A stretch of DNA of 64,000 nucleotides from an uncultured Actinomycetes bacterium (GCA_964501265.1 CAZCSK010000003.1:67480-131479), one strand, 5' to 3'. Positions 41,010 to 56,835 are shown, numbered from the stretch's first letter. Notes: generated from the sequence alone by a model not told the origin. Made by a program: numbers and translations.

Positions 41010-41780
41010 TTGAAAAGACTCGCCACTCTGAGCGCGATTTTGATCTTCGCCGCTGGATATATAGGACTGACGGCCACGCCCGCCCACGCCAAGTGCACGG
41101 ACGTGAAGTTCAGCAAGTCCAACTATCACGTGAACGAAGTAGACGGGGAAGTGGCGATCACGATCAAACGTGATATCAGTCTGCTCGGATGCCCTGGGAC
41201 GTTGAACTACAGCACCCAAGACGACAGCGCCACCGCGCCTTTCGATTACACGCAAACGAGCGACGAGTACATTTTTACCGAACCTACGCAGTCGACATAC
41301 ACGTTCACTATTCCGATCGTGAATGATGTCCTCCTTGAAGGCCCGGAGAGATTCAAGGTGAGCTTCGAGGCCTTCAACGACGCAACGACCGAACGCGGGA
41401 CTGCGACCGTCACGATCGCCGATAATCGCTTCGCTACTCCACCGCCTCCTCCTCCGCCTTCGACCACGACTTCGACTTCCGGTTCCTCTTCATCAGTCGT
41501 CTTGTCCAACAAACCGGCCCGGTCGGGGTCAACCCCCGCTGCAGCACCTTCCCCTCCGATTCAGCAGGAGCCGGTTGAGGCCGAGCCCGCGATCCAGATC
41601 GAATCCGAATCAGCTCCCATTGTGGCCCGCTCTCTCGCTTTGGCACAAGGAAAGGACCGAAACATGAGCGGAAAAAAGCTTTGGGCTTTTCTGCTGGTCG
41701 TACTGCTCGCCGCGACAGCGTTTTTACTCGTCGCGTGGCGTGTTCGTAGGAGCCCAAGAGAACACTTCAGTACTCTCTAG
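41010..41780 (+). CDS. Surface protein: signal peptide + Calx-beta domain + Pro/Ser/Thr linker + C-terminal TM anchor
   Basis: TTG start with GGAGG RBS. Calx-beta-like pattern (Y.V.E..G.V.I.R...DGTA-like DDSATAPFDY...F.V). C-terminal LWAFLLVVLLAATAFLLVAWRVRR. Confidence 0.5.
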   Translation: MKRLATLSAILIFAAGYIGLTATPAHAKCTDVKFSKSNYHVNEVDGEVAITIKRDISLLGCPGTLNYSTQDDSATAPFDYTQTSDEYIFTEPTQSTYTFTIPIVNDVLLEGPERFKVSFEAFNDATTERGTATVTIADNRFATPPPPPPPSTTTSTSGSSSSVVLSNKPARSGSTPAAAPSPPIQQEPVEAEPAIQIESESAPIVARSLALAQGKDRNMSGKKLWAFLLVVLLAATAFLLVAWRVRRSPREHFSTL

Positions 41781-41836
41781 ATCCGAGGATTGCCCGCGTC
41801 GAGTACTCTTGAGGTACCGCCCCGGGGAGGAACGAG

Positions 41837-42553
41837 ATGAGGAAGTTTGTCGCTCTTGTCGCCATGTTGATCCTGACAGCCACCTTCTTAGTTGTTTCAG
41901 CCGATCCTGCCGCAGCCGCTTGCCATGAAGCAGCTTTTAGCCCCACAACTCAGCAGGTCAACGAGAGCGCCGGGACTGTGAAGTTGAAGGTCATTCTCGT
42001 GGGCGGTGCTTCAACCTGCTCGGGTACGGTCAATTACCAAACAGAGAACGGAACAGCTGAAGGAGGGCAAGATAAGGATTTTGCCCCTGCCCAGGGATCT
42101 CTCACTTTCGTGGCGAACGACGATCGGCAGGAGGAGATCACCGTCCAGATCTTGGAGGACACGAACTTCGAGAACAACGAGACTTTCAAAGTCAAGCTCA
42201 CCGGATGCAACGGCGCGATCACAGTTTGTTCCAGCCAGGCAACCGTCACTATCGCCGACAACGACTCGGCACCGTCTCCCCCTCCGCCCGCTACGACTTC
42301 TCCGAGTCCGAAGAAGTCTCCGTCCCCATCTCCCTCACCTTCGCCTTCGCCGTCGCCGTCCCCAAGCCCTACTGAATCAGAGGACCCTGAGGAATCGCCT
42401 TCGGCTTCACCCGAGGCCTCGGCTTCGCCGAGTCCCCTCATCCAAACCCAGGGCAAGTCCGGCGGCGGCAAGAAGGTGGCGATCATCGCCCTAATCGCCG
42501 CGCTGGTTGCGGGCGGCGCTGGATTTGGTCTCTGGAAGTTACGCCAAACTTAA
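41837..42553 (+). CDS. Paralogous Calx-beta surface protein with (SP)n linker and C-terminal TM anchor
   Basis: GGGAGGAACGAG RBS. Calx-beta-like core (VNESAGTVKLKV...NGTAEGGQDKDF). SPSPSP low-complexity linker. C-terminal GGGKKVAIIALIAALVAGGAGFGLWKLRQT. Confidence 0.5.
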   Translation: MRKFVALVAMLILTATFLVVSADPAAAACHEAAFSPTTQQVNESAGTVKLKVILVGGASTCSGTVNYQTENGTAEGGQDKDFAPAQGSLTFVANDDRQEEITVQILEDTNFENNETFKVKLTGCNGAITVCSSQATVTIADNDSAPSPPPPATTSPSPKKSPSPSPSPSPSPSPSPSPTESEDPEESPSASPEASASPSPLIQTQGKSGGGKKVAIIALIAALVAGGAGFGLWKLRQT

Positions 42554-42563
42554 ACGGGGCACG

Positions 42564-44393
42564 CTAAGAAACTGGGGCCAGAACTCGGTCTAGGAAATCG
42601 GCGACTTTCGGGTACGCGTCCAGGCGGTTGCGGAGTTTCGCTAGCCCGTGGCCCTCGTCCTCGTAGATGAGCAGTTCGCAGTCGATGCCTCTCTCGCTCA
42701 AAACACGGTGTATCTGCTCCGCTTCCGTCACAGGCACTCGCGGATCATTTCGTCCGTGGATTATGAAGAGCGGCGCGCGCATGTTGTGCACATGGTTGAT
42801 CGGTGAGACCTCTTCGAGAAAGTCCCGGTCCATCTCCAACGACCCGTATTCCCGCTCGCGGAACTTTCGGCGCCACGCCGACGTGTTCTCGAGAAACGTA
42901 ACAAGGCTCGATACGCCGACGATGTCCACTCCTGCGGCCCACAGTTCCGGCTGAAAGGCCAGCCCAGCAAGAACCATGTAACCCCCATACGAACCGCCGT
43001 AGAGCGCGGCCCTCGAAGTGTCGATGTCTGTTTCGCCGAGGTAGGTGTGCAGAGCCGCAAGGTCTTTCACTGAATCGAGCCGCTTTCGGACATCGTCTAA
43101 ATGGTGGAACCTCTTGCCGTATCCCGTCGACCCGCGGACGTTGGGGCCCGCGACGGCAAATCCTCTGTGCAGGAAGTACTGCGCCAGCGGATTGAACATC
43201 CCCGACGTCTGACTCTCCGGCCCTCCGTGCACCATGACGACAACCGGAGGGCGGCTTCCTTCAAACACCCGCGGCCGAGAGAGAAAGGTTGGAATCGTCT
43301 CGCCATCGAAGGACTGGAATCGATGGACTTGCGTATCGACGAAGTCTTCGACGGGAATGGGGCTCGGACTGGTCGTTAGCCTTGTCTTTTGCTTCAAAGA
43401 AAAATCGTAGAGCCAAACGTCTCCCGGTTCGGTCGGGCCACTAAATGAGTAGGCAAGATAGCGTCCGTCCCGGGAGAATCCGCCTGCGGCGACACCTTGC
43501 CCAGGAAGCGCGATCTCCCCGATGAGCTCCAGGGTGATTGGGTCGTACAAAGCAAGCCGCGAGAACCCGTCCTCGTTTGTTGAAACGATCAATCGTGTGC
43601 CCGTCCAATCGAGGTCGCAACTTGCGTCGAAATCCTGTTCAAGAACATACGTCGCGTCGCGCTCCGCCATGCTGTATCGAGCAACGCAGTGATGCTCGCG
43701 GTCTTGATCGCAGGTGAAAAAGAAGGTCGATGAGTCAGGCATCCAATGCGGGGCGGTGAACGAAGCCTCGTCGTCGTGAGGAGTGACATGCACGGTGTCG
43801 CCCGCCACTAGATCGACGAGGTAGATGTCGTTGTCGGCGTTGCGGTCGGTCATGCGATAGATCGAGAGAAAACGGCCGTCGGGTGAAAATCCTACCGGTT
43901 GGCACCATCCGCCCATGTCGAACACGCAACGCTCTTCACCGGTTTTGAGGGCCCTGACGAACACGTCAAAGTCAACACCGTTGCGCCGGTTGCATGCGAA
44001 TGCGATCGAGGCGCCGTCTCTCGTGACGCCTCCAAGCCGGTGGATCCACTCGGGGTCGTAGATAACCGGACGGAAATTGCCGCCGTCGTCGTCCATCAAA
44101 TAGATCTGAAGCCGTTCGTTTCCGCCCTCGTCTTTTTGAACGAGAATTTCGTTAGAGGTCGGAAGGTATGCGCCACTAACCGGCTCGGAGAAATCGGTGA
44201 TCTGAGTAAGACCTCCGCCCGCCCGGGGCACCCTGTAAAGCTGCATGGTCCCAGTGAGATTGGATGAGACCAGGACCTTCGAGGAATCCGGGCTAAATCC
44301 CGACGCCCAGGCAGTCTTGATGTTCAGAAAGTCCTCGATGGTGTTTGGCCCAGGCATACCCGGAGTATAGATGCCATCCACCGCGATCAGCAA
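42564..44393 (-). CDS. S9 family serine peptidase (prolyl oligopeptidase/DPP-like) with N-terminal beta-propeller
   Basis: GGSYGGYM nucleophile elbow; downstream Asp (RNDPRVP) and His (DEGHG) complete the triad. Start codon uncertain (TTG at 44393 vs ATG at 44357). Confidence 0.75.
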   Translation of the reverse strand: MLIAVDGIYTPGMPGPNTIEDFLNIKTAWASGFSPDSSKVLVSSNLTGTMQLYRVPRAGGGLTQITDFSEPVSGAYLPTSNEILVQKDEGGNERLQIYLMDDDGGNFRPVIYDPEWIHRLGGVTRDGASIAFACNRRNGVDFDVFVRALKTGEERCVFDMGGWCQPVGFSPDGRFLSIYRMTDRNADNDIYLVDLVAGDTVHVTPHDDEASFTAPHWMPDSSTFFFTCDQDREHHCVARYSMAERDATYVLEQDFDASCDLDWTGTRLIVSTNEDGFSRLALYDPITLELIGEIALPGQGVAAGGFSRDGRYLAYSFSGPTEPGDVWLYDFSLKQKTRLTTSPSPIPVEDFVDTQVHRFQSFDGETIPTFLSRPRVFEGSRPPVVVMVHGGPESQTSGMFNPLAQYFLHRGFAVAGPNVRGSTGYGKRFHHLDDVRKRLDSVKDLAALHTYLGETDIDTSRAALYGGSYGGYMVLAGLAFQPELWAAGVDIVGVSSLVTFLENTSAWRRKFREREYGSLEMDRDFLEEVSPINHVHNMRAPLFIIHGRNDPRVPVTEAEQIHRVLSERGIDCELLIYEDEGHGLAKLRNRLDAYPKVADFLDRVLAPVS

Positions 44394-44410: not shown

Positions 44411-44445
44411 ACATCTTGCTATTTTGGTAAGCAGAGCTATAATCT
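44411..44445 (+). promoter_or_regulatory. Sigma-70-like promoter TTGCTA-N16-TATAAT upstream of the DUF4097 gene
   Basis: Near-consensus -35/-10 hexamers in an AT-rich island, followed by AAGGAG RBS and ATG at 44472. Confidence 0.35.
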
Positions 44446-44471
44446 CCCACAACCTAGGTAAGGAGATCCCT

Positions 44472-45314
44472 ATGAGTCCACAAGGCATCGACGAAAAGCG
44501 ACAGCTCCTCGAAATGGTAGCCGAGGGCAAAGTGACCCCCGAGGAGGCCGCCAAGCTGCTAAATGTCCTCTCCGGCCAAGCCGCTCCCGACCGTCCAACG
44601 GACGTCTCCGATGGCCCGGTCACTGCGGTCAAAGTGATCGGTACTTTCCGCACAGTCAAAGTAACCGGGGACTCGAGCGTGCAAGGCGCAATTGCCGAAG
44701 GACCGCACAAGGTACGCCTCTTAGACGGCACTCTCGTTTTCGAGGACGACATCACCGAGGATGAGGACGGTTACACGTTGTTCGGCCCAGGACGCGTGAC
44801 GCGGCGCAAGGGGTTTGACATGCGGATCAACAATCGCAAATTCCAATGGGGTCAGGGTTTCGATCCCGCGCACCCCCCAGTCCTTCGCATCAGAATGAAT
44901 CCTTCACTGCCGCTATCGCTGGAACTCATGGCAGGAACCGCGAATGTGAGCGATGTCAAGGGCGAGATCAAAGCGAGAATCGCCGCCGGCACGGGCAAGT
45001 TCCAAGGAGTCACGGGCCCCATACAAATCAGTGTCGAGGCTGGGACAGTCCATGTCGACGGCAAGCTGACGCAGGGCGAGTCCGAGATTTCTTGCACCGC
45101 CGGCAAAGTCCGCGTTCAGCTCGACCCCAGCTCGGACGTGCACGTAGTTGCCAAATCAACGCTCGGGCGCATCTCCTTGCCGCATGAGTACTCAAGCAAT
45201 CCCGAATGGTCGGGTCTTGGGGGGGCCGAACGCGAGGCAACCATCGGAAAGGGCACCGCTCGCCTTAACGTCAGCGCAGTCACAGGGTCGGTTCAGGTCG
45301 AGGTGGGACCGTGA
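44472..45314 (+). CDS. DUF4097-family (YvlB/LiaG-like) putative cell-envelope stress protein
   Basis: N-terminal EKRQLLEMVAEGKVTPEEAAKLLNVL motif typical of YvlB-like proteins, then beta-rich repeats. AAGGAG RBS. Confidence 0.5.
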   Translation: MSPQGIDEKRQLLEMVAEGKVTPEEAAKLLNVLSGQAAPDRPTDVSDGPVTAVKVIGTFRTVKVTGDSSVQGAIAEGPHKVRLLDGTLVFEDDITEDEDGYTLFGPGRVTRRKGFDMRINNRKFQWGQGFDPAHPPVLRIRMNPSLPLSLELMAGTANVSDVKGEIKARIAAGTGKFQGVTGPIQISVEAGTVHVDGKLTQGESEISCTAGKVRVQLDPSSDVHVVAKSTLGRISLPHEYSSNPEWSGLGGAEREATIGKGTARLNVSAVTGSVQVEVGP

Positions 45315-45694
45315 CTCCACTCAAGCAAGCCCCGCGGCAGTGTCCTGTGTGCTCGGAGGAGTTGACTCTCACGCGCCTCGCGTGCGACGAGTGCGGCACG
45401 GAACTGTCCGGTCACTTCCCCACCTGCGAATACTGCAGCCTTTCTCCGGGGGATCGCGGGACCTTGAAGGTATTTCTAGCGTCACGGGGAAACATGAAGG
45501 AAGTCGAACGTCACCTTGAGGTCAGTTATCCCACGGCTCGCATCCGCTTCGATGCGATCTTGTCGAAGCTTGGGCTTCCCGCGGGCGGTGATGCGGAGTC
45601 AGACGAGAATGAAGGCGACGGCAAACTGGATGTGCTCGGGGAACTCGCTTCGGGGACCATTAACGTGGACGAGGCCCTTAAGCGTTTAGGTTAG
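45311..45694 (+). CDS. DUF2089-family zinc-ribbon/HTH protein (YvlA-like)
   Basis: CPVC...C..C zinc ribbon, then HTH-like MKEVERHLEVSYPTARIRFDAIL. 4-nt overlap with the upstream gene. Confidence 0.55.
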   Translation: MTPLKQAPRQCPVCSEELTLTRLACDECGTELSGHFPTCEYCSLSPGDRGTLKVFLASRGNMKEVERHLEVSYPTARIRFDAILSKLGLPAGGDAESDENEGDGKLDVLGELASGTINVDEALKRLG

Positions 45695-45741: not shown

Positions 45742-46584
45742 TTGCATCGACGTCTGCTCGCGCTCGCGTGTTTAAGCGCTCTCACACTTTCGGGATGCAG
45801 CCGACTCGGATTGGTTCGCCGCTCCGACGCTCCCCCTAGCCCGCGTCCCACCGCGGCCCAGATTGGCGATCCGTCGGCAACCGCAATCGAAGTCCCTTCC
45901 CCAACTCCTCCTCAGGCGTCGCGAGCGCCGGGGGCCCCGCCCGGCGACTACACCAAGATCAACGATTTCGGCGATGTCGGATCCGCCTCCAGGCAGTTGC
46001 TCCGCCCTTCCCCGTTTACCGAGATCATTGTTGAGATCGATTTTCTGGCGGGGTTGGAGCCGAGTCAGAAGGCGGTCACCAACGTCATCGCAAGCCTGAA
46101 AAGAGTCACGGGCAAAAGGATCGTCCTTGAAGGAGCGAACCAGATGACTCCGACAAGGTCGGGCTGTTACTCTTCGGGCGATGTCGCCGCGAGCGCCGCA
46201 AGCCGGTCGATCTCGAGCGAAGGCAAGAGAGCCGCGATCTACGTCTTCTATCTGAACGTCTATTTCTGCGACAACGACAAAGCCCTCGGCGCTGCGACCA
46301 ACGCGACCGTGGCGGCGGTATTTCCGGAGACTTACCGTGGGAAGGGCGGTACCGATGCGGCTGTGGAAGAAACCGTACTCCTGCATCAAATCGGCCACTT
46401 GCTCGGCCTCGTTAACTTTTCCTACGTGGGCATTCGCCCCCACCACGACGGAAACGGGCATTCTAAAAACCCGAACTCGGTAATGCACCCCTCGGCGGAA
46501 ACGGACTTCTCAAGAGGCGCCCCGCTCACGTTTGATTCTGACGATTTGGCCGACATGGCCGACCTCGCTGCCGGACGCCTCTAA
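45742..46584 (+). CDS. Probable lipoprotein with metzincin-like domain; variant motif HQxxHxxGL...HSKNPxSVMH (catalytic Glu replaced by Gln)
   Basis: TTG start with AGGAGA RBS. Signal peptide + Cys (LTLSGCS). HQIGHLLGLVN...HSKNPNSVMH. C-terminal FDSDDLADMADLAAGRL. Confidence 0.5.
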   Translation: MHRRLLALACLSALTLSGCSRLGLVRRSDAPPSPRPTAAQIGDPSATAIEVPSPTPPQASRAPGAPPGDYTKINDFGDVGSASRQLLRPSPFTEIIVEIDFLAGLEPSQKAVTNVIASLKRVTGKRIVLEGANQMTPTRSGCYSSGDVAASAASRSISSEGKRAAIYVFYLNVYFCDNDKALGAATNATVAAVFPETYRGKGGTDAAVEETVLLHQIGHLLGLVNFSYVGIRPHHDGNGHSKNPNSVMHPSAETDFSRGAPLTFDSDDLADMADLAAGRL

Positions 46585-46628
46585 ATGGGAAGGCACGGTA
46601 GACTTTGAATCTAGTGGGGAGGCAAACC

Positions 46629-47579
46629 TTGAAGATTCGTAAACCGGCCGCAGTTCTGATGGCATTGCTCCTTGTAGCTGGAGCTTGCTCAAAGGCCAAG
46701 GAAGTCAAGACAGGACCGCGCACCGGAAAATACGGCGACCCGAACGCCGTCGATGCCTCTCCCACGGCTAAGGCGGCGGCGGGCGGAGCGCCAGCCGGAG
46801 GAACCTCAACTGGAGGCACGTCCGGCTCGGCTCCAACGAGTGCCACGACCAAGCCGACTCAAAAGGCAACGTCGTCCGGAGGATCGACTGGGGGGGCAGC
46901 CGCGGGGCCGAAACTAATCAACGACGCTGGGGGCAACGCCTGCAAGCCGATCCTTCAGCAAAGCGCCTACACCGAGATCGTTGTAGAGGTCGACTGGGTT
47001 GCGGGCCGCGAACCCAACCAACCCGCCATCAATCATTTGGTTAGTCTGTTAAAGCGTGAGACGGGGAAGCCCGTAACCCTGAAGGGCGGAAACCTACTTC
47101 CGGCCCAGGGTGGCAAATACGACGGCGAAAAGGTCCATCAAATCGCCGCTGGACGAAACACAAAGAGCGAAGCTCCGGTCGCGTCCCTTTGGGTCGGATA
47201 TCTTGACGGGGCTCCTCCGGCCCCTCCTGGCTACGCCACTTTGGGCACCGCTTATGGGGGTACCGTTTCCACTGTGTATAGGGACAGCATCAAGGCCACG
47301 GGGTTTCCGGACCTGGTCCAAGATGGGATCGAAAGAGCCGTCCTCATTCAGGAGATTTTTCATCTTCTTTGCATGACAAACATTGGCTACAAGAGCCCTC
47401 GGGACCATGAAGACAAGGACCACCCTCGTCATTCCAAGAACCCGAGCTCGGTCATGTATTGGGCCCTGATGACTCAGGACGGAATCGTCCCTTTCATCAC
47501 CAATGGCGGATCCCCTCCGGCTGATTTCGACGCCGACGACCGCGCCGACCTGGCCGATCTAAGGGCCGGCAGACTCTAG
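46629..47579 (+). CDS. Paralogous probable lipoprotein; degenerate motif QEIFHLLCM...HSKNPSSVMY (first zinc-ligand His lost)
   Basis: TTG start with GGGGAGG RBS. LLLVAGACS signal/lipobox-like. Conserved YTEIVVEVDWVAGREP block and C-terminal FDADDRADLADLRAGRL. Confidence 0.5.
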   Translation: MKIRKPAAVLMALLLVAGACSKAKEVKTGPRTGKYGDPNAVDASPTAKAAAGGAPAGGTSTGGTSGSAPTSATTKPTQKATSSGGSTGGAAAGPKLINDAGGNACKPILQQSAYTEIVVEVDWVAGREPNQPAINHLVSLLKRETGKPVTLKGGNLLPAQGGKYDGEKVHQIAAGRNTKSEAPVASLWVGYLDGAPPAPPGYATLGTAYGGTVSTVYRDSIKATGFPDLVQDGIERAVLIQEIFHLLCMTNIGYKSPRDHEDKDHPRHSKNPSSVMYWALMTQDGIVPFITNGGSPPADFDADDRADLADLRAGRL

Positions 47580-47581
47580 GG

Positions 47582-48430
47582 ATGCGCATCCGGGCGGGCG
47601 CCCTGGCGGCCGCCCTTTTGCTTCTGGCTGGGGCCTGCAGCCCGCGCCCTCCGACGCGGCCCCCAGAACCTCGGAGCGGCAGTTACGGATCAGGCGTTCG
47701 GTTGCCCGCCGACCGGCCCTCCCCAGCACCTGAGGCAACAACCGCCGCGGACACGCCAGAGACGAGAGACGATCGAGCGCGTGTTGACGATCTCGACTCT
47801 GTTGGGCAGGCCGCCCGAGCCCTATTGCAGCCTGGGCCCTTCTCTCAAATTGTCGTCGAAGTGGATTGGGTCGCCGGAAGGGAGCCCACGGCAAAGGCGA
47901 AGGAAATACTGGCAGCGCGCCTCCAAGAAGTGAGCCATAAATCCGTCAAGTTTGCAGGCGGCAACCCGATCAACCCAGGGGGCCCATGGACGATCGACGA
48001 CATCGCAACGCTGTCGCTTAATCGCAATACCCACAGCGTCGAGCCAAGCTTAAGTCTTTACATTGCGTTTCTCGATGGGAGGGCGCAGGAGAACAAGTTC
48101 GCCCTCGGGCGGGTAGTTGCCTCAACCGTCATCGCCATTTTTCCAGATGTGATCCGCAATTTCACTCCTCCGAACGTGGACGTTGCCGACGTTCAGGCCG
48201 GCTCGATGGTCCATGAACTGGGTCACCTGTTGGGCCTGGTCAACCTCATTTACGACAGCCCCCGCCCACACGGCGACCCGAACAACCCGCAACATTCCAA
48301 GAATCCAAAGTCGGTGATGTATCACGCCTACGAGCAGTCCTTTGGCGCCAGCGTTTTCGGCGCCCCGCCCAACCAATTCGACGCCGACGACCTCGCAGAC
48401 TTGGCTGACCTGGCGGCCGGCCGCCTCTAA
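47582..48430 (+). CDS. Paralogous probable lipoprotein with intact HExxHxxGL...HSKNPKSVMY (putative active zinc metalloprotease)
   Basis: LLLLAGACS signal. HELGHLLGLVN...HSKNPKSVMY: the third-His-to-Met spacing (+8) matches the matrixin Met-turn. C-terminal FDADDLADLADLAAGRL. Confidence 0.5.
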   Translation: MRIRAGALAAALLLLAGACSPRPPTRPPEPRSGSYGSGVRLPADRPSPAPEATTAADTPETRDDRARVDDLDSVGQAARALLQPGPFSQIVVEVDWVAGREPTAKAKEILAARLQEVSHKSVKFAGGNPINPGGPWTIDDIATLSLNRNTHSVEPSLSLYIAFLDGRAQENKFALGRVVASTVIAIFPDVIRNFTPPNVDVADVQAGSMVHELGHLLGLVNLIYDSPRPHGDPNNPQHSKNPKSVMYHAYEQSFGASVFGAPPNQFDADDLADLADLAAGRL

Positions 48431-48520
48431 CCTCCCAACCAGGGGGCGCGTGTCTCAATTTTTGCCATTTTTTCTCCATGGCATATGCTTACCGGCGCTC
48501 ACCAATGGGAGGAAGATCGC

Positions 48521-49828
48521 ATGGTTGAACTAACTACCGACTACCCGAAGTTTCAGTTCAGTGACGAACGACTAAAGAACGGCTTACGGCTGATCATGTC
48601 CGAGAGTCATCTAGTGCCGGTGGCCGCTGTCAACCTCTGGTACGACGTCGGCTCCAAGAACGATGCCCCCGGTAAAACGGGCATCGCTCATCTTTTCGAG
48701 CACATGATGTTCGAAGGCTCAGCGAACGTCACCAAAGGTGAGCACTTCAAATTAGTTAACTCAGTAGGGGGAACGAACAACGCCTCGACCTCGACCTTTC
48801 GGACCAACTACTTCGAATATGCTCCCTCGCATAATCTCGAGATGCTGATGTGGCTAGAAGCAGACCGCATGGGCGGCCTACTCCAGGCCCTGAGCCAAAA
48901 GACTCTGGACAATCAGCGCGATGTCGTAAAAAACGAACGACGCCAGGTAGTCGAGGACGTGCCTTATGCGATATGGCAAGAAAAGGCCTTCGAATTACTT
49001 TTCCCGGAGGGTCACCCCTACCGTTACCCAATCATCGGCTCCATGGATGATCTCTCCGCAGTTTCGCTAAAGGACGTCAAGGATTTCTTCAGCAATCACT
49101 ACGCTCCCAACAATGCGGTACTAAGCATCGTGGGGGACATTGATCCCGCCCAGGTACGCAAGTGGGCGGAGAAATATTTCGGCAAAATCCCGGCGAATCC
49201 CAAGATTCCGGCGCTCCGAGACCTTGAGCTGCCCTTCTCCCTCGGGGGCGAGGTGCGCGAAACCATCCGTGACAGGGTGCCTTACGCGGGCGTTTTCATG
49301 GCGCACAGGTCCCCTGGGATTGAGACCCGAGAAGACGACGTACTGACAATGGCCGGCGCTGTCCTTTCTTTCGGAAACGGAAGCAGGATGCATCAACGCT
49401 TGGTGCGAGAAAGAATCACTCTTGCCGCGGGTTTCCAGACTTTTTCACAACCTGGGGTCTCCATGAGCTACGCCTTTGGCATTGCCAACCCCAGCATCTT
49501 CGAGGACCGAGTCGAGCAGGGATTAATAGCACTCATCGACAGCCTCAAAACCGAACCCGTGAGCGCAGATGAGTTGGCCAGGGCAAGAGCACAGGTCGAA
49601 CGATCCTTGATCGACGGTTTGACAACAGTCGCGGCCAGGGCCGATTGGCTGTCGCAGCACGCCACAATCTTTGATGACCCGGGCAAGGCCAACGAGAAAC
49701 TCGATGACCTGATGAGCGTCACCGCAGACGAAATCCGTGACGTTGCAAACGAGATCCTCGTTAAAGAAAACCGAGCCGTGATTACTATCTTGCCCAAGCC
49801 ACCCAAGCCCAAAGCACGGAACAAGTGA
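48521..49828 (+). CDS. M16 family zinc peptidase (active subunit, HxxEH inverzincin motif)
   Basis: HLFEHMMFEGS zinc-binding motif. GGGAGGAAG RBS before the ATG at 48521. Confidence 0.75.
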   Translation: MVELTTDYPKFQFSDERLKNGLRLIMSESHLVPVAAVNLWYDVGSKNDAPGKTGIAHLFEHMMFEGSANVTKGEHFKLVNSVGGTNNASTSTFRTNYFEYAPSHNLEMLMWLEADRMGGLLQALSQKTLDNQRDVVKNERRQVVEDVPYAIWQEKAFELLFPEGHPYRYPIIGSMDDLSAVSLKDVKDFFSNHYAPNNAVLSIVGDIDPAQVRKWAEKYFGKIPANPKIPALRDLELPFSLGGEVRETIRDRVPYAGVFMAHRSPGIETREDDVLTMAGAVLSFGNGSRMHQRLVRERITLAAGFQTFSQPGVSMSYAFGIANPSIFEDRVEQGLIALIDSLKTEPVSADELARARAQVERSLIDGLTTVAARADWLSQHATIFDDPGKANEKLDDLMSVTADEIRDVANEILVKENRAVITILPKPPKPKARNK

Positions 49829-49840
49829 GGAGACCCCTAG

Positions 49841-51232
49841 ATGCCGGCGCTACCTAAACTGATCGCAAAGACTCCAACAGAGGGAACTCCAAAGACGTGG
49901 AAATTCCCTGGCTTCACTAGAACACAGCTCGATTCAGGCTTCACGATCATCGTCGCCAATGCTCCGGGTCGTACGCTCGCAGTTGCCCAGCTTCTTCTCG
50001 ACGCTGGGGCGAGCAACGAAAAAGCCGAAGAAGGTGGCGTGGCCAACATCACCGCTAACGCGCTACTCGAGGGCACCGATAACCACAAAGGCGAGAAGTA
50101 CGTACAGGCCTTGGAGCGTCTAGGGGCGGACATTGACGGGGGGGCAAACTGGGACTCCTTCGGGCTGAACCTGCGGGCCCCAGTAAGCAGACTGGAGCCA
50201 GCACTCGAACTCTTGGCGGAAGCGGTTCGCAGTCCGGAGCTGCCCTGGCGCGAAGTCGACCGCCTCACGCAGCAAACAGTTGGCGGAATCATGCAGGACT
50301 ATGCAAGCTCAGCCAGCCGCGCGACGATTGCATTCAACAAGCTGATATATACCCCTTCGTCACCATACTCCCGCTCGGCTGGAGGCAGTTTCTGGTCCGT
50401 GAGCACGATGGGTAAAAAGAGCGTCAAGAAGTACTACGAGCGGTTCGCCGCTTCAAGCTCGGCGACGCTCGTCGTGGTCGGAGACCTAGAGGGTGTTCCA
50501 GTCGAAAAAATCGCAGAGAAACTCTTTGGGGGCTGGAAAGGCAAGGACCCGGAGCGGACGCAACTACCGGTAGCCGAGAGCCTCAGACACACCTCTGCGC
50601 TGCTCGTCGAACGGCCTGACTCGACCCAGTCTCAGATCGCGATAGGCCACGTCGGAGTTTCGCGCTCGTCGCCGGACTACCTGCCGGTCCAGATGGTAGC
50701 GACTGCCCTCGGAGGCCTTCCCGACTCCCGTCTCAACCGGAAGCTGAGGGAGGAAAAGGGCTTTACATATGGCATCCAAGCTGGGTTCGACTTCCGACGA
50801 CAGGCCGGACCCTTTCGAATCAGTACGTCAGTTGACACCAACAAAACAGTAGATGCGATTGCAGAGATAGTGAAGGTCCTTGAAAAAGTCCACGATGAAG
50901 GCATCACCAAACAAGAACTCGAGTTGGTAAAAGGCTTTCTCACTGGCATCTTTACCCTTCGTTACGAGACGCCCGAGGCCATCGCATCGGCACTTTCAAG
51001 CTTGGTTACCTATGGGCTACCTGACGACTACTACGCAACCTACAGAGAACAAGTGCAAGAAGTGACGCTAGACGATTGCAATCGGGCCGCGGCCGAGTAC
51101 CTGCATCCCGATCGACTGGGTATCGTCGTGGTTGGCGACGCCAAAAAGGTGCGCGATCCACTCCACTCTGCTGGACTTGGGACTGTGGCCTACATCGAAG
51201 ATCCAGAGCCTGGGAATCCTCCGACACACTAG
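49841..51232 (+). CDS. M16 family peptidase-like protein (non-catalytic partner, no HxxEH)
   Basis: Same fold-level composition as the upstream M16 but lacks the inverzincin motif; typical M16B pair arrangement. Confidence 0.6.
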   Translation: MPALPKLIAKTPTEGTPKTWKFPGFTRTQLDSGFTIIVANAPGRTLAVAQLLLDAGASNEKAEEGGVANITANALLEGTDNHKGEKYVQALERLGADIDGGANWDSFGLNLRAPVSRLEPALELLAEAVRSPELPWREVDRLTQQTVGGIMQDYASSASRATIAFNKLIYTPSSPYSRSAGGSFWSVSTMGKKSVKKYYERFAASSSATLVVVGDLEGVPVEKIAEKLFGGWKGKDPERTQLPVAESLRHTSALLVERPDSTQSQIAIGHVGVSRSSPDYLPVQMVATALGGLPDSRLNRKLREEKGFTYGIQAGFDFRRQAGPFRISTSVDTNKTVDAIAEIVKVLEKVHDEGITKQELELVKGFLTGIFTLRYETPEAIASALSSLVTYGLPDDYYATYREQVQEVTLDDCNRAAAEYLHPDRLGIVVVGDAKKVRDPLHSAGLGTVAYIEDPEPGNPPTH

Positions 51233-51290
51233 CTTCGGCCCACAACACCAGTCAGAATTGGTAAAAACTGAGACACGCGCCCCCGGGAGA

Positions 51291-51793
51291 TTAGGAGCGG
51301 GCTGACAGTTGAACTATCTGCTTGGCTGCTGCGTCTAGATAGACGAGCACTTGTTTACCTGGCTCGGGTGGCGTCACGCCCTGCGCCAGTTTCAGTACGG
51401 TGCCGTCGGCGAACACTGCACGGCCCTTGGCGTCTAATTTGTTGAAGACTCCCGAATACACGACCCTTGGATCTGAGCCGTCTTTGGGTACGACGCCGAT
51501 GCCAGCCACCCATAGGGCCACCTTTGCTTTGTTGACCCCAACGTGAACGTATCGATCTTGCCAGTGGACGAGCGGCGTGACTGTATGTTCATTGGTTGTA
51601 AAGCTCTCGACGCTCTTGGAGATTTCGTACGTCCTGGCGCCATCAAGTGTGATGCTTTCGAAGGTGACAGCGGTAACGACACCTTCATCGGATGGTACGC
51701 GCGGTCCTTTGTCGAGGATGCTCTCGAGGGCGGGAGGGGTTCGCGCGCACGCTATCGCTAGGAGAAAAACAAGAACAGAGAACCTGCGCAATC
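51291..51793 (-). CDS. Probable lipoprotein, unknown function (167 aa)
   Basis: TTG start giving MRRFSVLVFLLAIAC; the ORF-track 5' extension to 52130 rejected (it overlaps the upstream gene). Last gene of the minus-strand supraoperon. Confidence 0.45.
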
Positions 51794-51795
51794 GA

Positions 51796-52815
51796 CTATG
51801 CCGCGGGAGTAACCGTTGAGGTCGAGATTTCGGATGTCTCCTGCGGCGGGGGTGCTGCGTCCGGTGCGGCTTGCGGGCCGAAGATTCCTCGGAGCGGCGC
51901 GGTGAGGGCCGCCGCTGGCAGGACGATCGCCAGCTTCGTATCGCCAAGACGCGAAATTTCAAAGAACATCGTTCGAGGACGGATCGGCTCGCGGGCTTGC
52001 CCCGCTCGAACTGCCGCAAGCAACTGCAACGGATAGCGCGGGCCGTCTCCACGCGCGGCCCGCTTAAAATCCTTGTGAGTCTCGAAGTCAATCTCCTCAG
52101 CAACTTTGATGACCTTGCCGTCAAGCACATAGAAAGACATCTTTCGAAAATGGGCTATTCCCGGCAGTGAGCCGGACGAGCCGCGAGTGCTTCGGGCAGG
52201 CAGGTTGGGAGGTATTACATCAAAGCGCTTGACCCCCGCGTCCTCATTGGGGTGCTCAAAGGGGTCTTCTCTGGGGAAATAATCGGGGCTGTCCTTGTTG
52301 AATTCCACAACACCGGCTGCTTCGGAAATTGACCGCCGAAAATACTGGAATGCGTAGATGGAATCGAGGATGAAATTCTGCCCCACCTGGATAACGCCGC
52401 TGCGGTCGCGGGGTGCGAGCACCGGGGGGGCCCCAGCCGGATCAGAGACCCATTGTCCCGCCTGCAGGGTCTGGGCGACTTTCTTGCTTCCGGCCACCTC
52501 GAGACCCTGAGCTGAGGGCACTTTCGACACATCGGCCACCCGAATGGCTATCGTGTCGTCGGATATGTATTCCTCGAACACTTCCGTATCGTTGAACGTC
52601 AGAAGGGCTCGAGCCCGAAGGTCGTCTTCAACTTCGCCAGTCACTACGGCTTTGCCGGCAGGAGTATCGTCGGTGTAGCTGAAAGCGTGTGGGAGACCCT
52701 CCGATGCCGCCAGAAACTTGAGCACCTTCTCTTCCGCTGTTTCGTCTCTGCTACCGCAGGCAGCGCCAAGCACAATGAGAGTCAGGCAAACTAAAACTGC
52801 AACGAGGCGGCGCAT
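51796..52815 (-). CDS. Probable lipoprotein, unknown function (339 aa)
   Basis: MRRLVAVLVCLTLIVLGAACGS signal + Cys. Start trimmed from 52914 to 52815. Confidence 0.45.
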   Translation of the reverse strand: MRRLVAVLVCLTLIVLGAACGSRDETAEEKVLKFLAASEGLPHAFSYTDDTPAGKAVVTGEVEDDLRARALLTFNDTEVFEEYISDDTIAIRVADVSKVPSAQGLEVAGSKKVAQTLQAGQWVSDPAGAPPVLAPRDRSGVIQVGQNFILDSIYAFQYFRRSISEAAGVVEFNKDSPDYFPREDPFEHPNEDAGVKRFDVIPPNLPARSTRGSSGSLPGIAHFRKMSFYVLDGKVIKVAEEIDFETHKDFKRAARGDGPRYPLQLLAAVRAGQAREPIRPRTMFFEISRLGDTKLAIVLPAAALTAPLRGIFGPQAAPDAAPPPQETSEISTSTVTPAA

Positions 52816-53321
52816 TATTGCAGTTCCAGGGCCACTACTTTGCGCAACAAAGTCCGCGGAAATTCGTAGTCCTGGTGGATGGACAGAATGAACATTCCTC
52901 TGCCGCGAAACCACACAAAGATGTTTTGCTTGTTGCCAGCGGTGGAACTCACGCTTGTGTCCCCCACGCGAAGCTGCGACGGCGTTGTGCCGCCCAGCAG
53001 CGCTGCGATCGATTTGCGGAATCCTTCGCTCTGGGGCCGAGCGAATCTAGAAAGACGGCTCACTTGAAGAGTTGCCCGCAATAGTTCGTCATCGCGCATC
53101 GAGAAAAGCCCGTTTGAGTCGACATATGACTGTTTGATTCCAACCGCTTCCTTTCTGATGTCCTCCGGCTGCACAACAAGGCCCAGAATCTGCTTGGGAA
53201 TCCGAATACCCGATCCTTCGACGAACCCAGCACCGGTGTCAGCCGCCTTCGAGCATCCGGCGGCAACAAGCAATGCGGCACAGGCGAGGGCGACGGCGAT
53301 ACGCGCCGTTGTCTTCCTCAT
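52815..53321 (-). CDS. Probable lipoprotein, unknown function (168 aa)
   Basis: MRKTTARIAVALACAALLVAAGCS signal + Cys. ATGA overlap with the upstream gene. Start trimmed from 53405. Confidence 0.45.
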   Translation of the reverse strand: MRKTTARIAVALACAALLVAAGCSKAADTGAGFVEGSGIRIPKQILGLVVQPEDIRKEAVGIKQSYVDSNGLFSMRDDELLRATLQVSRLSRFARPQSEGFRKSIAALLGGTTPSQLRVGDTSVSSTAGNKQNIFVWFRGRGMFILSIHQDYEFPRTLLRKVVALELQ

Positions 53322-53845
53322 TGAACGGTCAGTTTGGCCCGGATAAAGCCCGCGGCTCGGTCGGTGATTTCCCAGGTTCCGGTTTGTCCAAATGTCTGAG
53401 ACCAAACCGCCCCCGGTTTCATCGGCCCCGAGTCGAAAGCGCCCGAAGCGGTGAAACTGCGGATCGGGCGGCCATCAGTGCGGTCCTCGTTTTTCACCCG
53501 CAGAGTAAATCCCACCGGCATCGTAAAGTCCTGGCCAAGTTCTTTGTTGGGCCCGAACGCGTAGAAGGGACTTTCCTCGACCAGGAAGACGTCAAAGAAC
53601 TTTTCGTCTGGCGCTTTCGTGGGTGCTACTGTCGCGGCTGTTGGCGATGGATTGCCGACACCCAGCTTGTCAGTTGGCTGCGGTGAGGGCTCAGGCGACT
53701 TGCACTCGCCAAGCCGGCACGCAGGAGTTGCATCACCGATCTTGTCCAGATCGATGTCGCCCCCGATGCTGTTGGGTTTTCCGCACGCTGCCCCTATCAT
53801 CGCCAAACAAGCAACTAACACTGTCCATCGCTTCATACTTCTCAT
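53318..53845 (-). CDS. Probable lipoprotein, unknown function (175 aa), beta-rich C-terminal domain
   Basis: MRSMKRWTVLVACLAMIGAACGK signal + Cys. 4-nt overlap with the upstream ABC fusion gene. Confidence 0.45.
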   Translation of the reverse strand: MRSMKRWTVLVACLAMIGAACGKPNSIGGDIDLDKIGDATPACRLGECKSPEPSPQPTDKLGVGNPSPTAATVAPTKAPDEKFFDVFLVEESPFYAFGPNKELGQDFTMPVGFTLRVKNEDRTDGRPIRSFTASGAFDSGPMKPGAVWSQTFGQTGTWEITDRAAGFIRAKLTVQ

Positions 53846-56835
53846 GTTAGGGCACCCGAGCGTTTAATGGCCTCCTCGGAGGTCCCCAGGTACGCCTGGA
53901 TCAGTCGCTCATCGTTCAATACCTCGGCTGGTTGACCGCGCATCAGCACCTTGCCTTGAATCATTGCGACTAGCTCGTCGGAGACGGCCGAGATCAGAGG
54001 CATATCGTGCTCGATTATCAGCATGCTGCACCCCGTCTCGAACCTCACCCGACGAAGGAGTGGCGCAAGCCCCTCCGACTCGGCCTGGGCGATTCCGGTT
54101 GAAGGCTCGTCAAGCAGAAGCACTTTGGGCTCGGCCGCGAGGACGCAGGCAAGGTCGGTGATTCGGCGCAAACCAGTGGAGAGTTCACGCACAAATTTGT
54201 CGCGATATCCCCCAAGGTCAAGCAGTTCGATAAGCCTGTCTGCCCGTAATCGGATGCGGCGCTCCGCCTGTCGCACCTGCGGTACCTGCAGCGCGGTCAG
54301 GGCCATATTGCGAACTTCCAACTTGGGCTCTAGAGCGACAAGTAGGTTTTCGTAAACCGTAAGAGCCGGAAACAGTCTGGCGTCCTGGAAGCGTCTCACC
54401 AAACGCAATTTTGCCCGCTCGTCCGGACGCAGCGAAGAGATGTCGTTCCCATCAAAGATGATCTGGCCCTCGTCGGCGAACTGAAATCCACAAATGATGT
54501 CGAACAAGGTGGTCTTGCCAGCTCCGTTGGGCCCTATCAGCCCGAGTGCTTCGCCCTCACGAAGATCGATACTCACATCCGTCAGAGCGTCGATCCCGCC
54601 GAAACTCTTGCTAATCGAGCGAACCTGCAAGACGGGCCGCGCTTCAGCCAGTTCGAACTGCCGCTGCTCGCGTGCAGACCGCATTGCGCCTGCGGGAGCG
54701 CCATCCGTAAGTGCTCCGGTTCCCTTGACGTAGACAGCGCGCAAGATGTCGGGGCGGCGCATCAGTTCCTCGGTTTTGCCGATGAACTTAACTTCACCCT
54801 TCTCCATGAAGATCGCATGTTCCGCCACTGTCAATGCGACATTGACCGATTGCTCGACGATGATGATCGCCGTTCCCTGGCGGTTGATCGCCCGAACGAC
54901 TTCGATGAGTTGGCCCACCATTGCTGGAGACAATCCCAACGACAGTTCATCGATCATCAATAACTTTGGCTTGGAAAGAAGGGCTTGAGCAAGTGAAAGC
55001 ATCTGTTGCTCTCCGCCCGAGAGCAGACCTGCAAGTTCACTTCCCCGCTCCTTGAGGATTGGGAAAAGCCGGTGAACTTCCTCCATACGCGTCTTCGCGT
55101 CGGCCTTGTCGCTGGACATCCAACCGCCGAGTTCCAGGTTCGCCTTCACCGTCAAACCAGGGAAAACGCCACGCCCTCCAGGCATGTGGATAACTCCTCG
55201 CTGTGTAATCTCGTGAGGAGGCATGTGTGTTATGTCGCGACCGTCGTGAACGATGGCACCTGAAGATGCCTCCTGGGTGCCGCTGATGGCGCGAAGCAGC
55301 GTGGACTTGCCTGCGCCGTTGGTACCGAGTAGGGCAATCGTCTGACCCTCTTCGACATCGAAGTCCACGCCGAAGAGCACCTGTACGTTGTCGTACGCCA
55401 CATCCACATCGCGGCAAACAAGCATCTTGCCTTGGCCCGACGCCTTGGCATAGCGCCATTCCGCCGATGCCGACTGACTGGCCTCAGCCGATCTGACATC
55501 TCTTGCGTACTTGCCTGCCGCACTCAGACTTATCAGGCTTGAAAGGACGATGAAAGGCGTCGCGAATCTAAGAGCTCCTTGAATACCAAAGCGCTGAATG
55601 ATTTCAGCCACGGCGAAAAATTGAATAACGTTCGAAGGGATGCCGGTTAGAACGAAAAGCGACCCACCCTGCGTCCTCACGTGCGCGGGAAGGATGTTCG
55701 CTCTCAATACTCCTCCGGCAGGGCCCAGGAGCGCGCCGCCGATGCCGAACACAATGCTGCTTGCGATAAGTACCGGAAGAGGTGGTGCCGCCGCCAAGAC
55801 CAAAAGAAAGAGTGCCGAGGCGACCCCAAGGAGCCCCGAATACACGAGTACCCGCTGGGGTCGGTAGCGGAGCAAGACATCGATAAGTCCGCCTGACAGG
55901 AAGCCGAACGGCAGCAAGACAAGGGTGATGGCAATGCTGATGTATGCGCGCTCCTTGATACCGAGCCCGTACTCGGCCCTAAGGAACTGCGCAAACAAGA
56001 GCGCATAAATGTAAGTGCCAACGTTGCCCGGAATCGCGGCAAGGAAGAACGTGCGAATGGTCCTGATCGCCCATATTGTTCTGAAGGCCTCGCCGAAGCT
56101 AACTGGCTCCTCAGGTTGGCGCGCCTCCTCCTCGGTGGCGCCGTTTGCTCTCCGCTCCATGTAGCCCCTAATTGGTTCCTTCAGTCCGATGAAAGCGAGT
56201 AGCGTGGCGGCAATCATCAGCGACCCCGAAACCACGAATGGTGACCGCCAACCGAATGTGGTGACCAGATAGACAATGAGCAACGAAGTGGTAACGCTAA
56301 TTGCGTCGAAGGTCACTCCGAATAGGGCGAAGACCTTTCCACGGGAGGTCGCGGGATAGTAGTCGGCGATAAGCGAGGAAATCGGAATTCCGCGAATCTG
56401 CGATCCTAGGTTGTCCCCCATTCGAGAAAGGGCAAGCGGAGTGAGGGAGTACGAGCGCGCTGTAAACAACGAGAAAATGCCACCCAGCGCCGTTCCAATG
56501 GCAACTAGTGGCACCCTCTTATGACGGTCTGCGTAATAACCCAAGCCCAGCGTAGCGAAAATCAAGACAAAACCTGTAAGGCTTGTGGCCTGCACAAGGC
56601 GACTGAGTGTGATTTCCAAATCTCGAATGATCTCAGGAGCGGCCGCACCGAAAATGCCGCCGTCGAAAGCGCTGACGATCCCGAGTAGGACAAAAACCAA
56701 GATCGGCTTCAGGCCGTAAGGAGTGTTTTTAAGTTCCTTGTAGTTCGCGGCCTCTTTGAGCGTGCGCTTGAAGCTGAGTTTGCCCACGGCAAGGGTGCTG
56801 GGCCGGCCCGCGGAAGCATCTTTGACTTCACTCAT
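53842..56835 (-). CDS. Triple fusion: MFS-like 12-TM domain + LivF-type NBD + LivG-type NBD
   Basis: 997 aa. N-terminal hydrophobic domain with MFS-like GYYADRHKRVPL. First NBD Walker A GTNGAGKST (LivF-like), second NBD GLIGPNGAGKTT (LivG-like); each has LSGG signature and Walker B. Confidence 0.65.
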   Translation of the reverse strand: MSEVKDASAGRPSTLAVGKLSFKRTLKEAANYKELKNTPYGLKPILVFVLLGIVSAFDGGIFGAAAPEIIRDLEITLSRLVQATSLTGFVLIFATLGLGYYADRHKRVPLVAIGTALGGIFSLFTARSYSLTPLALSRMGDNLGSQIRGIPISSLIADYYPATSRGKVFALFGVTFDAISVTTSLLIVYLVTTFGWRSPFVVSGSLMIAATLLAFIGLKEPIRGYMERRANGATEEEARQPEEPVSFGEAFRTIWAIRTIRTFFLAAIPGNVGTYIYALLFAQFLRAEYGLGIKERAYISIAITLVLLPFGFLSGGLIDVLLRYRPQRVLVYSGLLGVASALFLLVLAAAPPLPVLIASSIVFGIGGALLGPAGGVLRANILPAHVRTQGGSLFVLTGIPSNVIQFFAVAEIIQRFGIQGALRFATPFIVLSSLISLSAAGKYARDVRSAEASQSASAEWRYAKASGQGKMLVCRDVDVAYDNVQVLFGVDFDVEEGQTIALLGTNGAGKSTLLRAISGTQEASSGAIVHDGRDITHMPPHEITQRGVIHMPGGRGVFPGLTVKANLELGGWMSSDKADAKTRMEEVHRLFPILKERGSELAGLLSGGEQQMLSLAQALLSKPKLLMIDELSLGLSPAMVGQLIEVVRAINRQGTAIIIVEQSVNVALTVAEHAIFMEKGEVKFIGKTEELMRRPDILRAVYVKGTGALTDGAPAGAMRSAREQRQFELAEARPVLQVRSISKSFGGIDALTDVSIDLREGEALGLIGPNGAGKTTLFDIICGFQFADEGQIIFDGNDISSLRPDERAKLRLVRRFQDARLFPALTVYENLLVALEPKLEVRNMALTALQVPQVRQAERRIRLRADRLIELLDLGGYRDKFVRELSTGLRRITDLACVLAAEPKVLLLDEPSTGIAQAESEGLAPLLRRVRFETGCSMLIIEHDMPLISAVSDELVAMIQGKVLMRGQPAEVLNDERLIQAYLGTSEEAIKRSGALT

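Follow-up and report, generated by a model that had tools for sequence, protein, structure and literature searches.

The stretch of DNA analysed here, referred to as the window, comprises 64,000 nucleotides (nt) from an uncultured Actinomycetes bacterium (GCA_964501265.1 CAZCSK010000003.1:67480-131479) and harbours three tandem plus-strand genes that code for metzincin-like lipoproteins, designated c1, c2 and c3 (Table 1). The three proteins are paralogous, with pairwise identities of 37-40%; with c3 as query the orthologues of c1 and c2 were recovered from 5.8 billion sequences at E = 1e-43 and 5e-38, a relationship far beyond chance. An AGGAG ribosome-binding site is found 5' of c1, and only 2 nt separate the stop codon of c2 from the start codon of c3. 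Of the two possible starts of c2 the downstream one is the more likely, since a GGGGAGG ribosome-binding site precedes it and since it gives identity with the database protein P0009. The signal peptides end in the lipobox sequences LSGC (c1), AGAC (c2) and AGAC (c3), and the lipobox Cys is followed in all three copies by a linker of 58-84 residues, 57-74% of which are Pro, Ala, Ser, Thr or Gly and which comes out disordered in AlphaFold 2 (AF2) models. The longest of these tethers, 84 residues rich in Gly, Ser, Thr and Ala, belongs to c2. A lipobox-like motif was present in 220 of 248 full-length members of the family to which the three proteins belong, and the N-terminal signal and lipobox Cys predict that these proteins are bacterial lipoproteins and are lipidated. 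The lipobox Cys19 is the only Cys in c3, and a Cys-switch propeptide (PRCGxPD) is absent from that protein.

The complete set of catalytic residues, H211, E212, H215, H238 and M246, was found in c3 only. In c1 all three putative zinc ligands and the Met are retained and the general-base Glu is replaced by Gln (E212Q, HQIGH), while in c2 the first zinc-ligand His is replaced by Gln (H211Q, QEIFH), together with the equivalents of G214F, G218C and E251M. The HExxHxxG helix of the metzincins with its general base is thus whole in c3, lacks the Glu in c1 and lacks the first His in c2. An initial annotation, made from the sequence alone, had proposed three tandem metzincin-like lipoproteins of which a single one keeps HExxH, and had seen in all three the block HSKNPxSVM with a matrixin-like distance from His to Met. 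These proposals proved correct, the distance being seven intervening residues, as in the matrix metalloproteinases (MMPs; HSTDPSALM) and in the HCx4CxM of archaemetzincins. Its LLGLVN core, on the other hand, is shared by c1 and c3 but reads LLCMTN in c2.

In the three proteins the zinc signature of canonical metzincins is split. The second His and the His of the HS motif are separated by 22 residues in c2 and c3 and by 20 in c1, against 5 in canonical metzincins, and the insertion therefore amounts to 17 or 15 residues. The insertion of about 17 residues announced by the initial annotation was accordingly recovered, at 17 residues in c2 and c3 and 15 in c1, though the split is not unique: leishmanolysin carries a 62-residue insertion between Gly271 and His334, at exactly the same site (PMC9321319), and the split signature is thus rare but has a precedent. 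Conservation was read from an alignment of 102 sequences in c3 numbering, which is used throughout. In this alignment H215, H238, M246 and D267 are invariant, H211, E212, G214 and G218 are conserved in at least 95% of sequences, and the lipobox Cys, D232, F266, D273 and L274 in at least 90%; the HExxH-like positions are thus strongly conserved among homologues, a check that the initial annotation had called for. The insertion is 15 residues long in 53 sequences and 17 in 37. No ligand-type residue follows contiguously at position +11 (HExxHxxGxxH/D) in the three copies, which all have Asn at this position (residue 221), and the family as a whole has Asp in 57% and Asn in 39%, with Gly, Ala and Glu in addition. 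The Met-turn is marked by the invariant M246, and a Ser directly follows H238 (HSxNxxSVM).

The insertion proposed by the initial annotation was borne out in silico when, in 29 diverse members, everything from position +11 up to the last residue ahead of the invariant His was deleted. The intact family profile found nothing significant in the PDB, its best matches being metzincins at E ~0.6-1. The excised profile gave 159 matches at E<=1, the best 60 of which were all metzincins, each aligned as one contiguous block; the segment avlvHELGHlLGLVHssneksvMywave, for example, aligns with a metzincin. Among the E-values were 1.9e-7 for MMP-20, 3.4e-7 for MMP-1, 7e-7 for MMP-12, 9.5e-7 for the archaemetzincin-like 3lmc and 2.7e-6 for fragilysin (over 84 residues). 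The boundaries of the excision were picked to restore canonical spacing and the gain in score is in part built in; the agreement further downstream, HS..N..SVMY, is not produced by the choice of boundaries.

The same pattern was seen with domain models. On intact c1, c2 or c3 every Pfam and NCBIfam model falls short of its cut-off. Peptidase_M10 (PF00413), the matrixin model, gave 19.3 bits for c1, 16.5 bits for c3 and no match for c2, so that the profile search suggested by the initial annotation did find matrixin-type matches for two copies, below the gathering score of 24. That score is exceeded by excised constructs only, with 34.7 bits for excised c3. All 29 excised constructs match Pfam M10 as well as the NCBIfam archmetzin model (NF033823), the latter far below its whole-protein cut-off of 145 (11.3 bits intact and 26.4 bits excised). 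The Pfam model of M54, PF07998, likewise stays below its cut-off of 24.4 with 17.3 bits after excision. When members were scanned singly, weak matches were obtained to Peptidase_M10 in 85 of 102 and to Reprolysin_5 in 59 of 102. The short insertion into the diagnostic zinc signature is the reason why Pfam and NCBIfam miss the family, which could not be placed from its intact sequences alone.

For c3, an AF2 model based on the alignment of the family had a mean predicted local distance difference test score (pLDDT) of 86.6 and a predicted template modelling score of 0.80, with residues 61-282, the domain, mostly above 93, and the model of c2 was likewise confident. The predicted domain has the elements of a metzincin catalytic domain, a beta-sheet with a backing helix, the active-site helix and a C-terminal helix. 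In a Foldseek search of the PDB with the c3 model the archaemetzincins 3lmc, 2x7m and 4axq came out on top (E ~1e-5), followed by matrilysin, fragilysin and ADAM22, and the first 37 matches were all metzincins, an outcome that the initial annotation had made a condition of its proposal in asking for a zincin-type fold. Structure comparison figures were 11.1 for 3lmc, 11.0 for 3zvs, 10.2 for Bacteroides fragilis MPII and ~10 for adamalysins and ADAMs, and lower for MMP-9 (9.1), snapalysin (8.5), ulilysin (8.2) and leishmanolysin (7.4); 2x7m, 3zvs and 3lmc took ranks 1-3 for both models. We are highly confident of the metzincin fold and of the placement of the family. The matrixin-like spacing seen in the initial annotation is reflected in the sequence matches to MMPs after excision, but by the models the nearest structural relatives are the archaemetzincins (M54) and not the matrixins.

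A near-identical acidic 17-mer at the C-terminus had also been singled out at the outset. The shared end is indeed present (FDSDDLADMADLAAGRL in c1, FDADDRADLADLRAGRL in c2 and FDADDLADLADLAAGRL in c3, with the common pattern FDxDDxADxADLxAGRL), but it is not a separate tail: in the c3 model the domain closes with a helix at residues 268-278, at block-mean pLDDT 96-98, and the 17-mer is, as modelled, the closing helix of the metzincin fold. A role as sorting or anchoring signal (PEP-CTERM, GlyGly-CTERM or LPXTG-like) was rejected because there is no hydrophobic segment, because the helix is confidently placed within the domain and because it covaries with the Met-turn segment. This covariation concerns positions 239, 244, 267 and 270, which read SSDD in 90, DCDC in 8 and CCDC in 4 of the aligned sequences, a single Cys at 244 or 270 never being seen. 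The archaemetzincin signature is HEXXHXXGXXHCX4CXMX17CXXC, in which a structural zinc site beneath the catalytic one is built by the four Cys (PMC3427221), and the family pattern H-[S/C]-x4-[S/C]-x-M ... D-x-x-[D/C] runs parallel to its HC-x4-C-x-M-x17-C-x-x-C. In c1, c2 and c3 these positions are held by S239, S244, D267 and D270, the two Asp standing at those of the CxxC. Members from Bacteroidota and Thermoplasmata read HCSETNCLM, HCKNESCVM or HCTNEDCVM, and HCx4CxM is kept in the Thermoplasmata member L007 and the Bacteroidota members L005 and L008. The members from marine group II archaea (L001, L002, L003 and L006; Poseidoniales / Methanobacteriota metagenome-assembled genomes, MAGs) are of the Cys-free SSDD type, are 33-36% identical to c3 and stand near the actinobacterial forms. 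This distribution of types hints at inter-domain transfer.

Compared with known families, the proteins of the window are closest in three dimensions to archaemetzincins (AmzA of Methanopyrus kandleri, 2x7m; Archaeoglobus fulgidus, 3zvs/4axq; Methanocorpusculum, 3lmc), from which they differ in a third His that is not contiguous, owing to the insertion of 15-17 residues, and in having Ser/Ser/Asp/Asp instead of four Cys, so that the M54 signature is found in none of the copies. They also differ in being secreted lipoproteins with long tethers where archaemetzincins are cytosolic, and in a loop from Met to helix that is 3 residues longer. With the matrixins (M10A) they have in common the Ser that comes next to the third His as well as the distance from His to Met; the excised c3 motif HELGHLLGLV-HSKNPKSVMY compares well with MMP-20, and MMPs were the best matches in the PDB at the sequence level (E ~1e-7). 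Leishmanolysin (GP63, M8) is the one well-known metzincin family with a split at the same site and is also membrane-anchored at the cell surface. Snapalysin-type Asp-zincins (M7) are set apart by HExxHxxGxxD, which is absent from the three copies: these carry Asn at +11, followed by a further invariant His and a block HS...M like that of MMPs, and their domain of about 200 residues is larger than that of snapalysin (about 130). The family is best described as combining an archaemetzincin-like structure with a leishmanolysin-like split and a conserved gene pair of pseudoenzyme and enzyme.

When 1.84 billion cluster representatives (clusters at 50% identity) were searched exhaustively with a profile, 2,443 proteins passed E<=1e-3, of which 998 also passed E<=1e-30. 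Every one of the 100 matches of a word-indexed search was named "hypothetical protein" and carried no Pfam domain. The named sources of homologues were Actinomycetota, Acidimicrobiales and Nitriliruptorales MAGs. A scan of reference genomes gave at least 9 distant loci; among the matches listed were Poseidoniales, Thermoplasmata archaea and Bacteroidota (e.g. Arenibacter), and none of those listed belonged to the clade of the window. Most of the family is encoded by HExxH genes that occur in one copy and in unrelated contexts; the distant members L013 and L015 are no exception, and operons gave no general clue. Given that Pfam (2025), NCBIfam (2026), the source annotations and literature searches yielded no description of it, the family is best described as a metzincin family new to description. 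A few members depart from the usual motif: P0216 reads HELGRLFGL, with Arg for the second zinc His, P0127, P0149, P0153, P0186, P0189, P0206 and P0213 are further variants, and in a subgroup with HExGHLLRLVN the Gly of the turn is replaced by Arg.

The altered copies c1 and c2 are maintained by selection. Locus L010 is an identical copy of the window locus and L011 a diverged relative whose genes stand in the same order, and in comparison with the latter the ratio of nonsynonymous to synonymous substitution rates (dN/dS) was 0.094 for c1 (81% amino acid identity) and 0.107 for c2 (68%), values that are approximate as dS was high (1.3 and 2.3). Both genes are under purifying selection. The HQxxH clade is narrow, with four proteins of at least 81% identity that all read HQIGH (the c1 orthologues being P0244, P0008 and P0007), and the HQxxH copy is a recent, lineage-specific addition. 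The QExxH clade is broad, with 13 proteins that have the Gln, down to 41% identity, and is judged to be old. Since His and Gln codons differ by a single third-position base, the persistence of Gln to 41% identity argues for selection. Exactly three clade-specific changes are fixed in the domain of this clade, H211Q, E251M (which lies five residues past the Met) and a Gly at 162, and E212, H215, H238 and M246 are retained. In a neighbour-joining tree without support values the three clades of the window group together, with the c3-type HExxH clade as sister to the QExxH and HQxxH clades. Loss of a catalytic residue is thus combined with evolutionary retention in c1 (E212Q) as well as c2 (H211Q), which supports the pseudo-protease paralogues beside one intact copy that the initial annotation had suggested.

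Similar lesions are known on the metzincin fold, namely HQLGH in ADAM7, QSLAH in ADAM22 and QSIGH in unc-71, and ADAM7 and ADAM22 are non-proteolytic (PMC11266112). CarG, an archaemetzincin homologue with a Glu-to-Gln replacement, is a non-proteolytic transcription cofactor (PMC3427221). As in the non-proteolytic ADAMs, both kinds of lesion (Glu to Gln, and first His to Gln) occur here with the Met-turn retained, and non-proteolytic ADAMs and pairs of the alpha/beta-MPP type illustrate how inactive paralogues are kept by selection and act by binding rather than cleaving. These, however, are eukaryotic multidomain receptors and mitochondrial enzymes, whereas the inactive copies described here are single-domain prokaryotic lipoproteins encoded in tandem with an intact paralogue. 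In five of six loci an HExxH paralogue stands directly behind the QExxH gene, with gaps of 2 nt in the window, 2 in L011, 49 in L012, 33 in L016 and 10 in L017.

Taken together, the trio would consist of tethered metzincins of which c3 is active and c2 and c1 are non-catalytic, an explanation that we consider probable as a whole; the assignment of activity to c3 and of inactivity to c1 and c2 is, taken by itself, slightly more secure. Each protein would present a catalytic-type domain of about 200 residues at the cell surface, on a disordered tether of 58-84 residues that starts from a lipid-anchored Cys. The order of its signature would be HExxHxxGLV, a loop of 15-17 residues, the invariant His and a Met-turn at matrixin/archaemetzincin spacing, with Ser239, Ser244, Asp267 and Asp270 standing in for the Cys4 zinc knuckle of archaemetzincins. 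On the strength of its fold and catalytic residues c3 is predicted to be a zinc endopeptidase outside the cytoplasmic membrane, with Zn on H211, H215 and H238, E212 as general base and M246 beneath the site, and its 17-residue loop may add a structural element next to the cleft, on the primed side. The c2 protein would have the same fold with a dismantled metal site and, given the 2-nt spacing, would be made in step with c3 as a non-catalytic partner or regulator. Probably still able to bind metal but not to activate water, c1 is a candidate for a protein that binds or traps substrate without cleaving it. A direct partnership of c2 and c3 is somewhat short of an even chance. A more far-reaching reading is doubtful, namely that the HExxH enzyme pairs at the cell surface with the product of the QExxH gene in front of it, which would be its obligate non-catalytic subunit, and that the whole family is a secreted, Cys-free branch of the archaemetzincins.

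Several points weigh against this interpretation, in addition to the approximate nature of the dN/dS values, the tree without support values and the partly built-in gain of the excised profile. Archaeal archaemetzincins, the closest structures, show no protease activity in vitro (PMC3427221), and the term peptidase is for this reason used here as a prediction. P0249, which belongs to the QExxH clade and is 53% identical to c2, reads HEFFH and also lacks Glu at 251. Conserved adjacency is the sole observation behind the partnership of c2 and c3, and in L018 the QExxH gene has no downstream paralogue, nor any convincing open reading frame (ORF) in that place. As for P0249, it is the only such member of its clade and may represent an apparent reversal from Gln to His or a retained ancestral state. 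The 1.4 kb that follow the QExxH gene in L018 (7886-9280) have no convincing ORF on either strand and might reflect degradation, what is left of a mobile element or a chimeric assembly; without a credible ORF there, L018 was set aside as uninformative with regard to a partnerless QExxH gene.

As to the metal site, H238 is most likely the third zinc ligand, because it is invariant where position 221 is variable and because the downstream sequence matches after excision; zinc binding as such is predicted from the conserved residues. The ligand could alternatively be Asp/Asn 221 at +11, as in snapalysin-type Asp-zincins (HExxHxxGxxD), with H238 serving in the second shell, in substrate binding or, together with the His/Asp-rich insertion, as ligand of a second metal. 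This is improbable: position 221 is Asn in more than a third of the family, c1, c2 and c3 included, and in a few members Gly, Ala or Glu, while Asn, Ser and Thr are no known zinc ligands (PMC3427221), H238 is invariant and is followed by Ser/Cys and then Met at the exact MMP/archaemetzincin spacing, and excision restores significant contiguous matches.

The lesions of c1 and c2 might also be read as compatible with catalysis, the trio then being three isoenzymes of differing specificity in which Gln211 of c2 acts as a weak metal ligand or is compensated and Gln212 of c1 permits slow turnover. The general-base Glu, H215, H238 and the Met-turn of c2 are under strong constraint, and both folds are predicted with high confidence, which speaks for this reading. 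It is nevertheless very unlikely, as both Glu-to-Gln precedents in the metzincin families, ADAM7 and CarG, are non-proteolytic and the QExxH clade has lost E251 in a fixed and coordinated way, with G214 and G218 lost from c2 besides. That the lesions lie at catalytic positions could also mean that c1 and c2 are decaying, functionless duplicates and pseudogenes in the making, which we regard as extremely unlikely and have rejected on the grounds of dN/dS and orthologue conservation: the frames are intact and preceded by ribosome-binding sites, dN/dS is ~0.1, the substitutions are shared by orthologues down to 81% (HQ) and 41% (QE) identity, and the remaining fold is conserved and confidently modelled. 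More serious, though still unlikely, is that the family does not consist of peptidases, but of metal-dependent hydrolases acting on cell-wall or lipid-linked substrates or of binding or structural modules, the HExxH variants then representing differing binding specificities. Against this, the full metzincin catalytic set is conserved in at least 95% of the 102 sequences, RNA substrates are implausible for extracytoplasmic lipoproteins, and the highest-ranked structural neighbours after the archaemetzincins are all true endopeptidases. The trio of one active metzincin and two non-catalytic relatives remains the preferred reading.

Table 1. Features of the metzincin-like gene array and its surroundings in the window (positions counted from the first nucleotide of the window)
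Feature	Position	Strand	Remarks
Two tandem Calx-beta proteins and S9 prolyl-oligopeptidase-family enzyme with beta-propeller	41010-42553, 42564-44393	-	Just upstream
Promoter-like TTGCTA-16-TATAAT	44416-44443	+	Consensus match only, 5' of Toastrack gene
SHOCT-like and Toastrack (DUF4097) gene	44424-45314	+	PF22746 33 bits, above cut-off; DUF4097 19.8 bits, sub-threshold
DUF2089 zinc-ribbon and helix-turn-helix gene	45311-45694	+	PF09862 and PF22747 above cut-offs; predicted transcription regulator
c1	45742-46584	+	280 aa lipoprotein, metzincin fold, HQIGH; from ORF and translation
c1 zinc-binding motif equivalent HQIGHLLGLVN	46384-46416	+	
c1 insertion equivalent	46414-46458	+	15 aa
c1 HSKNPxSVM equivalent	46459-46485	+	
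c1 C-terminal 17-mer equivalent	46531-46581	+	
c2	46629-47579	+	316 aa lipoprotein, QEIFH; ORF open from 46605 (324 aa)
c2 zinc-binding motif equivalent QEIFHLLCMTN	47349-47381	+	
c2 insertion equivalent	47379-47429	+	17 aa
c2 HSKNPxSVM equivalent	47430-47456	+	
c2 C-terminal 17-mer equivalent	47526-47576	+	
c3	47582-48430	+	282 aa lipoprotein, HELGH; only copy with complete site
c3 zinc-binding helix motif HELGHLLGLVN (HExxHxxGxxN)	48212-48244	+	At end of model helix 201-216
c3 17-residue insertion NLIYDSPRPHGDPNNPQ	48242-48292	+	Between Gly turn and third His; includes nearly invariant D232
c3 HSKNPKSVM	48293-48319	+	Putative third zinc ligand H238 and Met-turn M246
c3 C-terminal FDADDLADLADLAAGRL	48377-48427	+	Last helix of catalytic fold; model helix 268-278
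Terminator-like hairpin GGGGCGCGTGTCTC and T-run	48443-48456	+	13 nt past c3 stop; 5 bp stem, low confidence
M16 peptidase, HLFEH	48485-49828	+	Pfam, motif check; without signal peptide
M16 peptidase, no HxxEH	49841-51232	+	Pfam, motif check; without signal peptide

Two genes precede the array. The SHOCT-like/Toastrack gene is the first gene of the likely operon and is overlapped by 4 nt by the DUF2089 gene, which ends 47 nt before c1. The pairing of Toastrack and DUF2089 is also found in L011, and about 4 kb away in L018, and has been predicted to be Lia-like, conveying membrane-associated signals to transcription (PMC11237479). It is possible that the promoter-like site and the hairpin bracket a five-gene unit, but such consensus matches are no commoner than in shuffled sequence. 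The Calx-beta genes are kept upstream in L011 as well. Further upstream, at 36827-39753, genes for ALAD (HemB), a class-III aminotransferase (HemL-like) and a chlorite-dismutase-family protein (HemQ/ChdC-like) stand in a row, an arrangement consistent with the coproporphyrin-dependent route to heme in monoderm bacteria, Actinomycetota among them.

The M16 pair that follows the array is itself a couple of an active and an inactive form. It adjoins the QExxH gene in the window, L012 and L018, is divergent in L012 and L018 and is absent from L016 and L017. A functional coupling of the trio to this pair was considered and is weakened by the lack of signal peptides, by its absence in L016 and L017 and by the fact that in L012 and L018 it lies at the opposite end of the array. 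The 14-mer GGGGCGCGTGTCTC with its T-run recurs inverted at 51270-51283 on the minus strand, on the far side of the M16 pair, and in L016 and L017 the metzincin pair directly adjoins a downstream block of lipoprotein and ABC transporter genes. As inverted 14-mers flank the M16 pair and L016 and L017 lack it at this place, it looks like an insertion, bracketed by the GGGGCGCGTGTCTC element, in the lineage of the window. Past the pair lies a minus-strand block (51291-53845, 53842-56835 and 56845-59190) with four small consecutive proteins that have lipobox-like LAIAC, LGAAC, VAAGC and IGAAC and no Pfam match, then an unusual fusion of MFS_1 with two ABC_tran domains (997 aa) and a BPD_transp_2 (Liv-type) permease of 781 aa. 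At 48-66% identity, this lipoprotein/ABC block has its syntenic counterpart in the genes immediately 3' of the QExxH/HExxH pair of L016 and L017. The neighbourhood as a whole suggests a possible role at the cell envelope or in nutrient acquisition.

There are precedents for the fold, the catalytic logic, the insertion site and the inactive paralogues, and the biology described here is not new in kind. Although few proteases have been studied as well as the metzincins, no Pfam or NCBIfam model exists for this family of 2,443 clusters, and recognition of the split motif would let thousands of "hypothetical lipoproteins" be annotated. The family ties secreted bacterial enzymes to the enigmatic archaemetzincins and indicates that the Cys4 zinc knuckle can be replaced outside the cytoplasm by Ser/Asp or, likely, by a disulfide. 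The conserved pair of QExxH and HExxH proteins offers a clean natural system for the study of pseudoprotease function in bacteria. If the pairing is truly obligate, it would be the first prokaryotic extracytoplasmic pair of a metzincin pseudoprotease and a protease, analogous to alpha/beta-MPP, and if the family is indeed a Cys-free branch with such pairs, it would provide a tractable route into the biology of the archaemetzincins.

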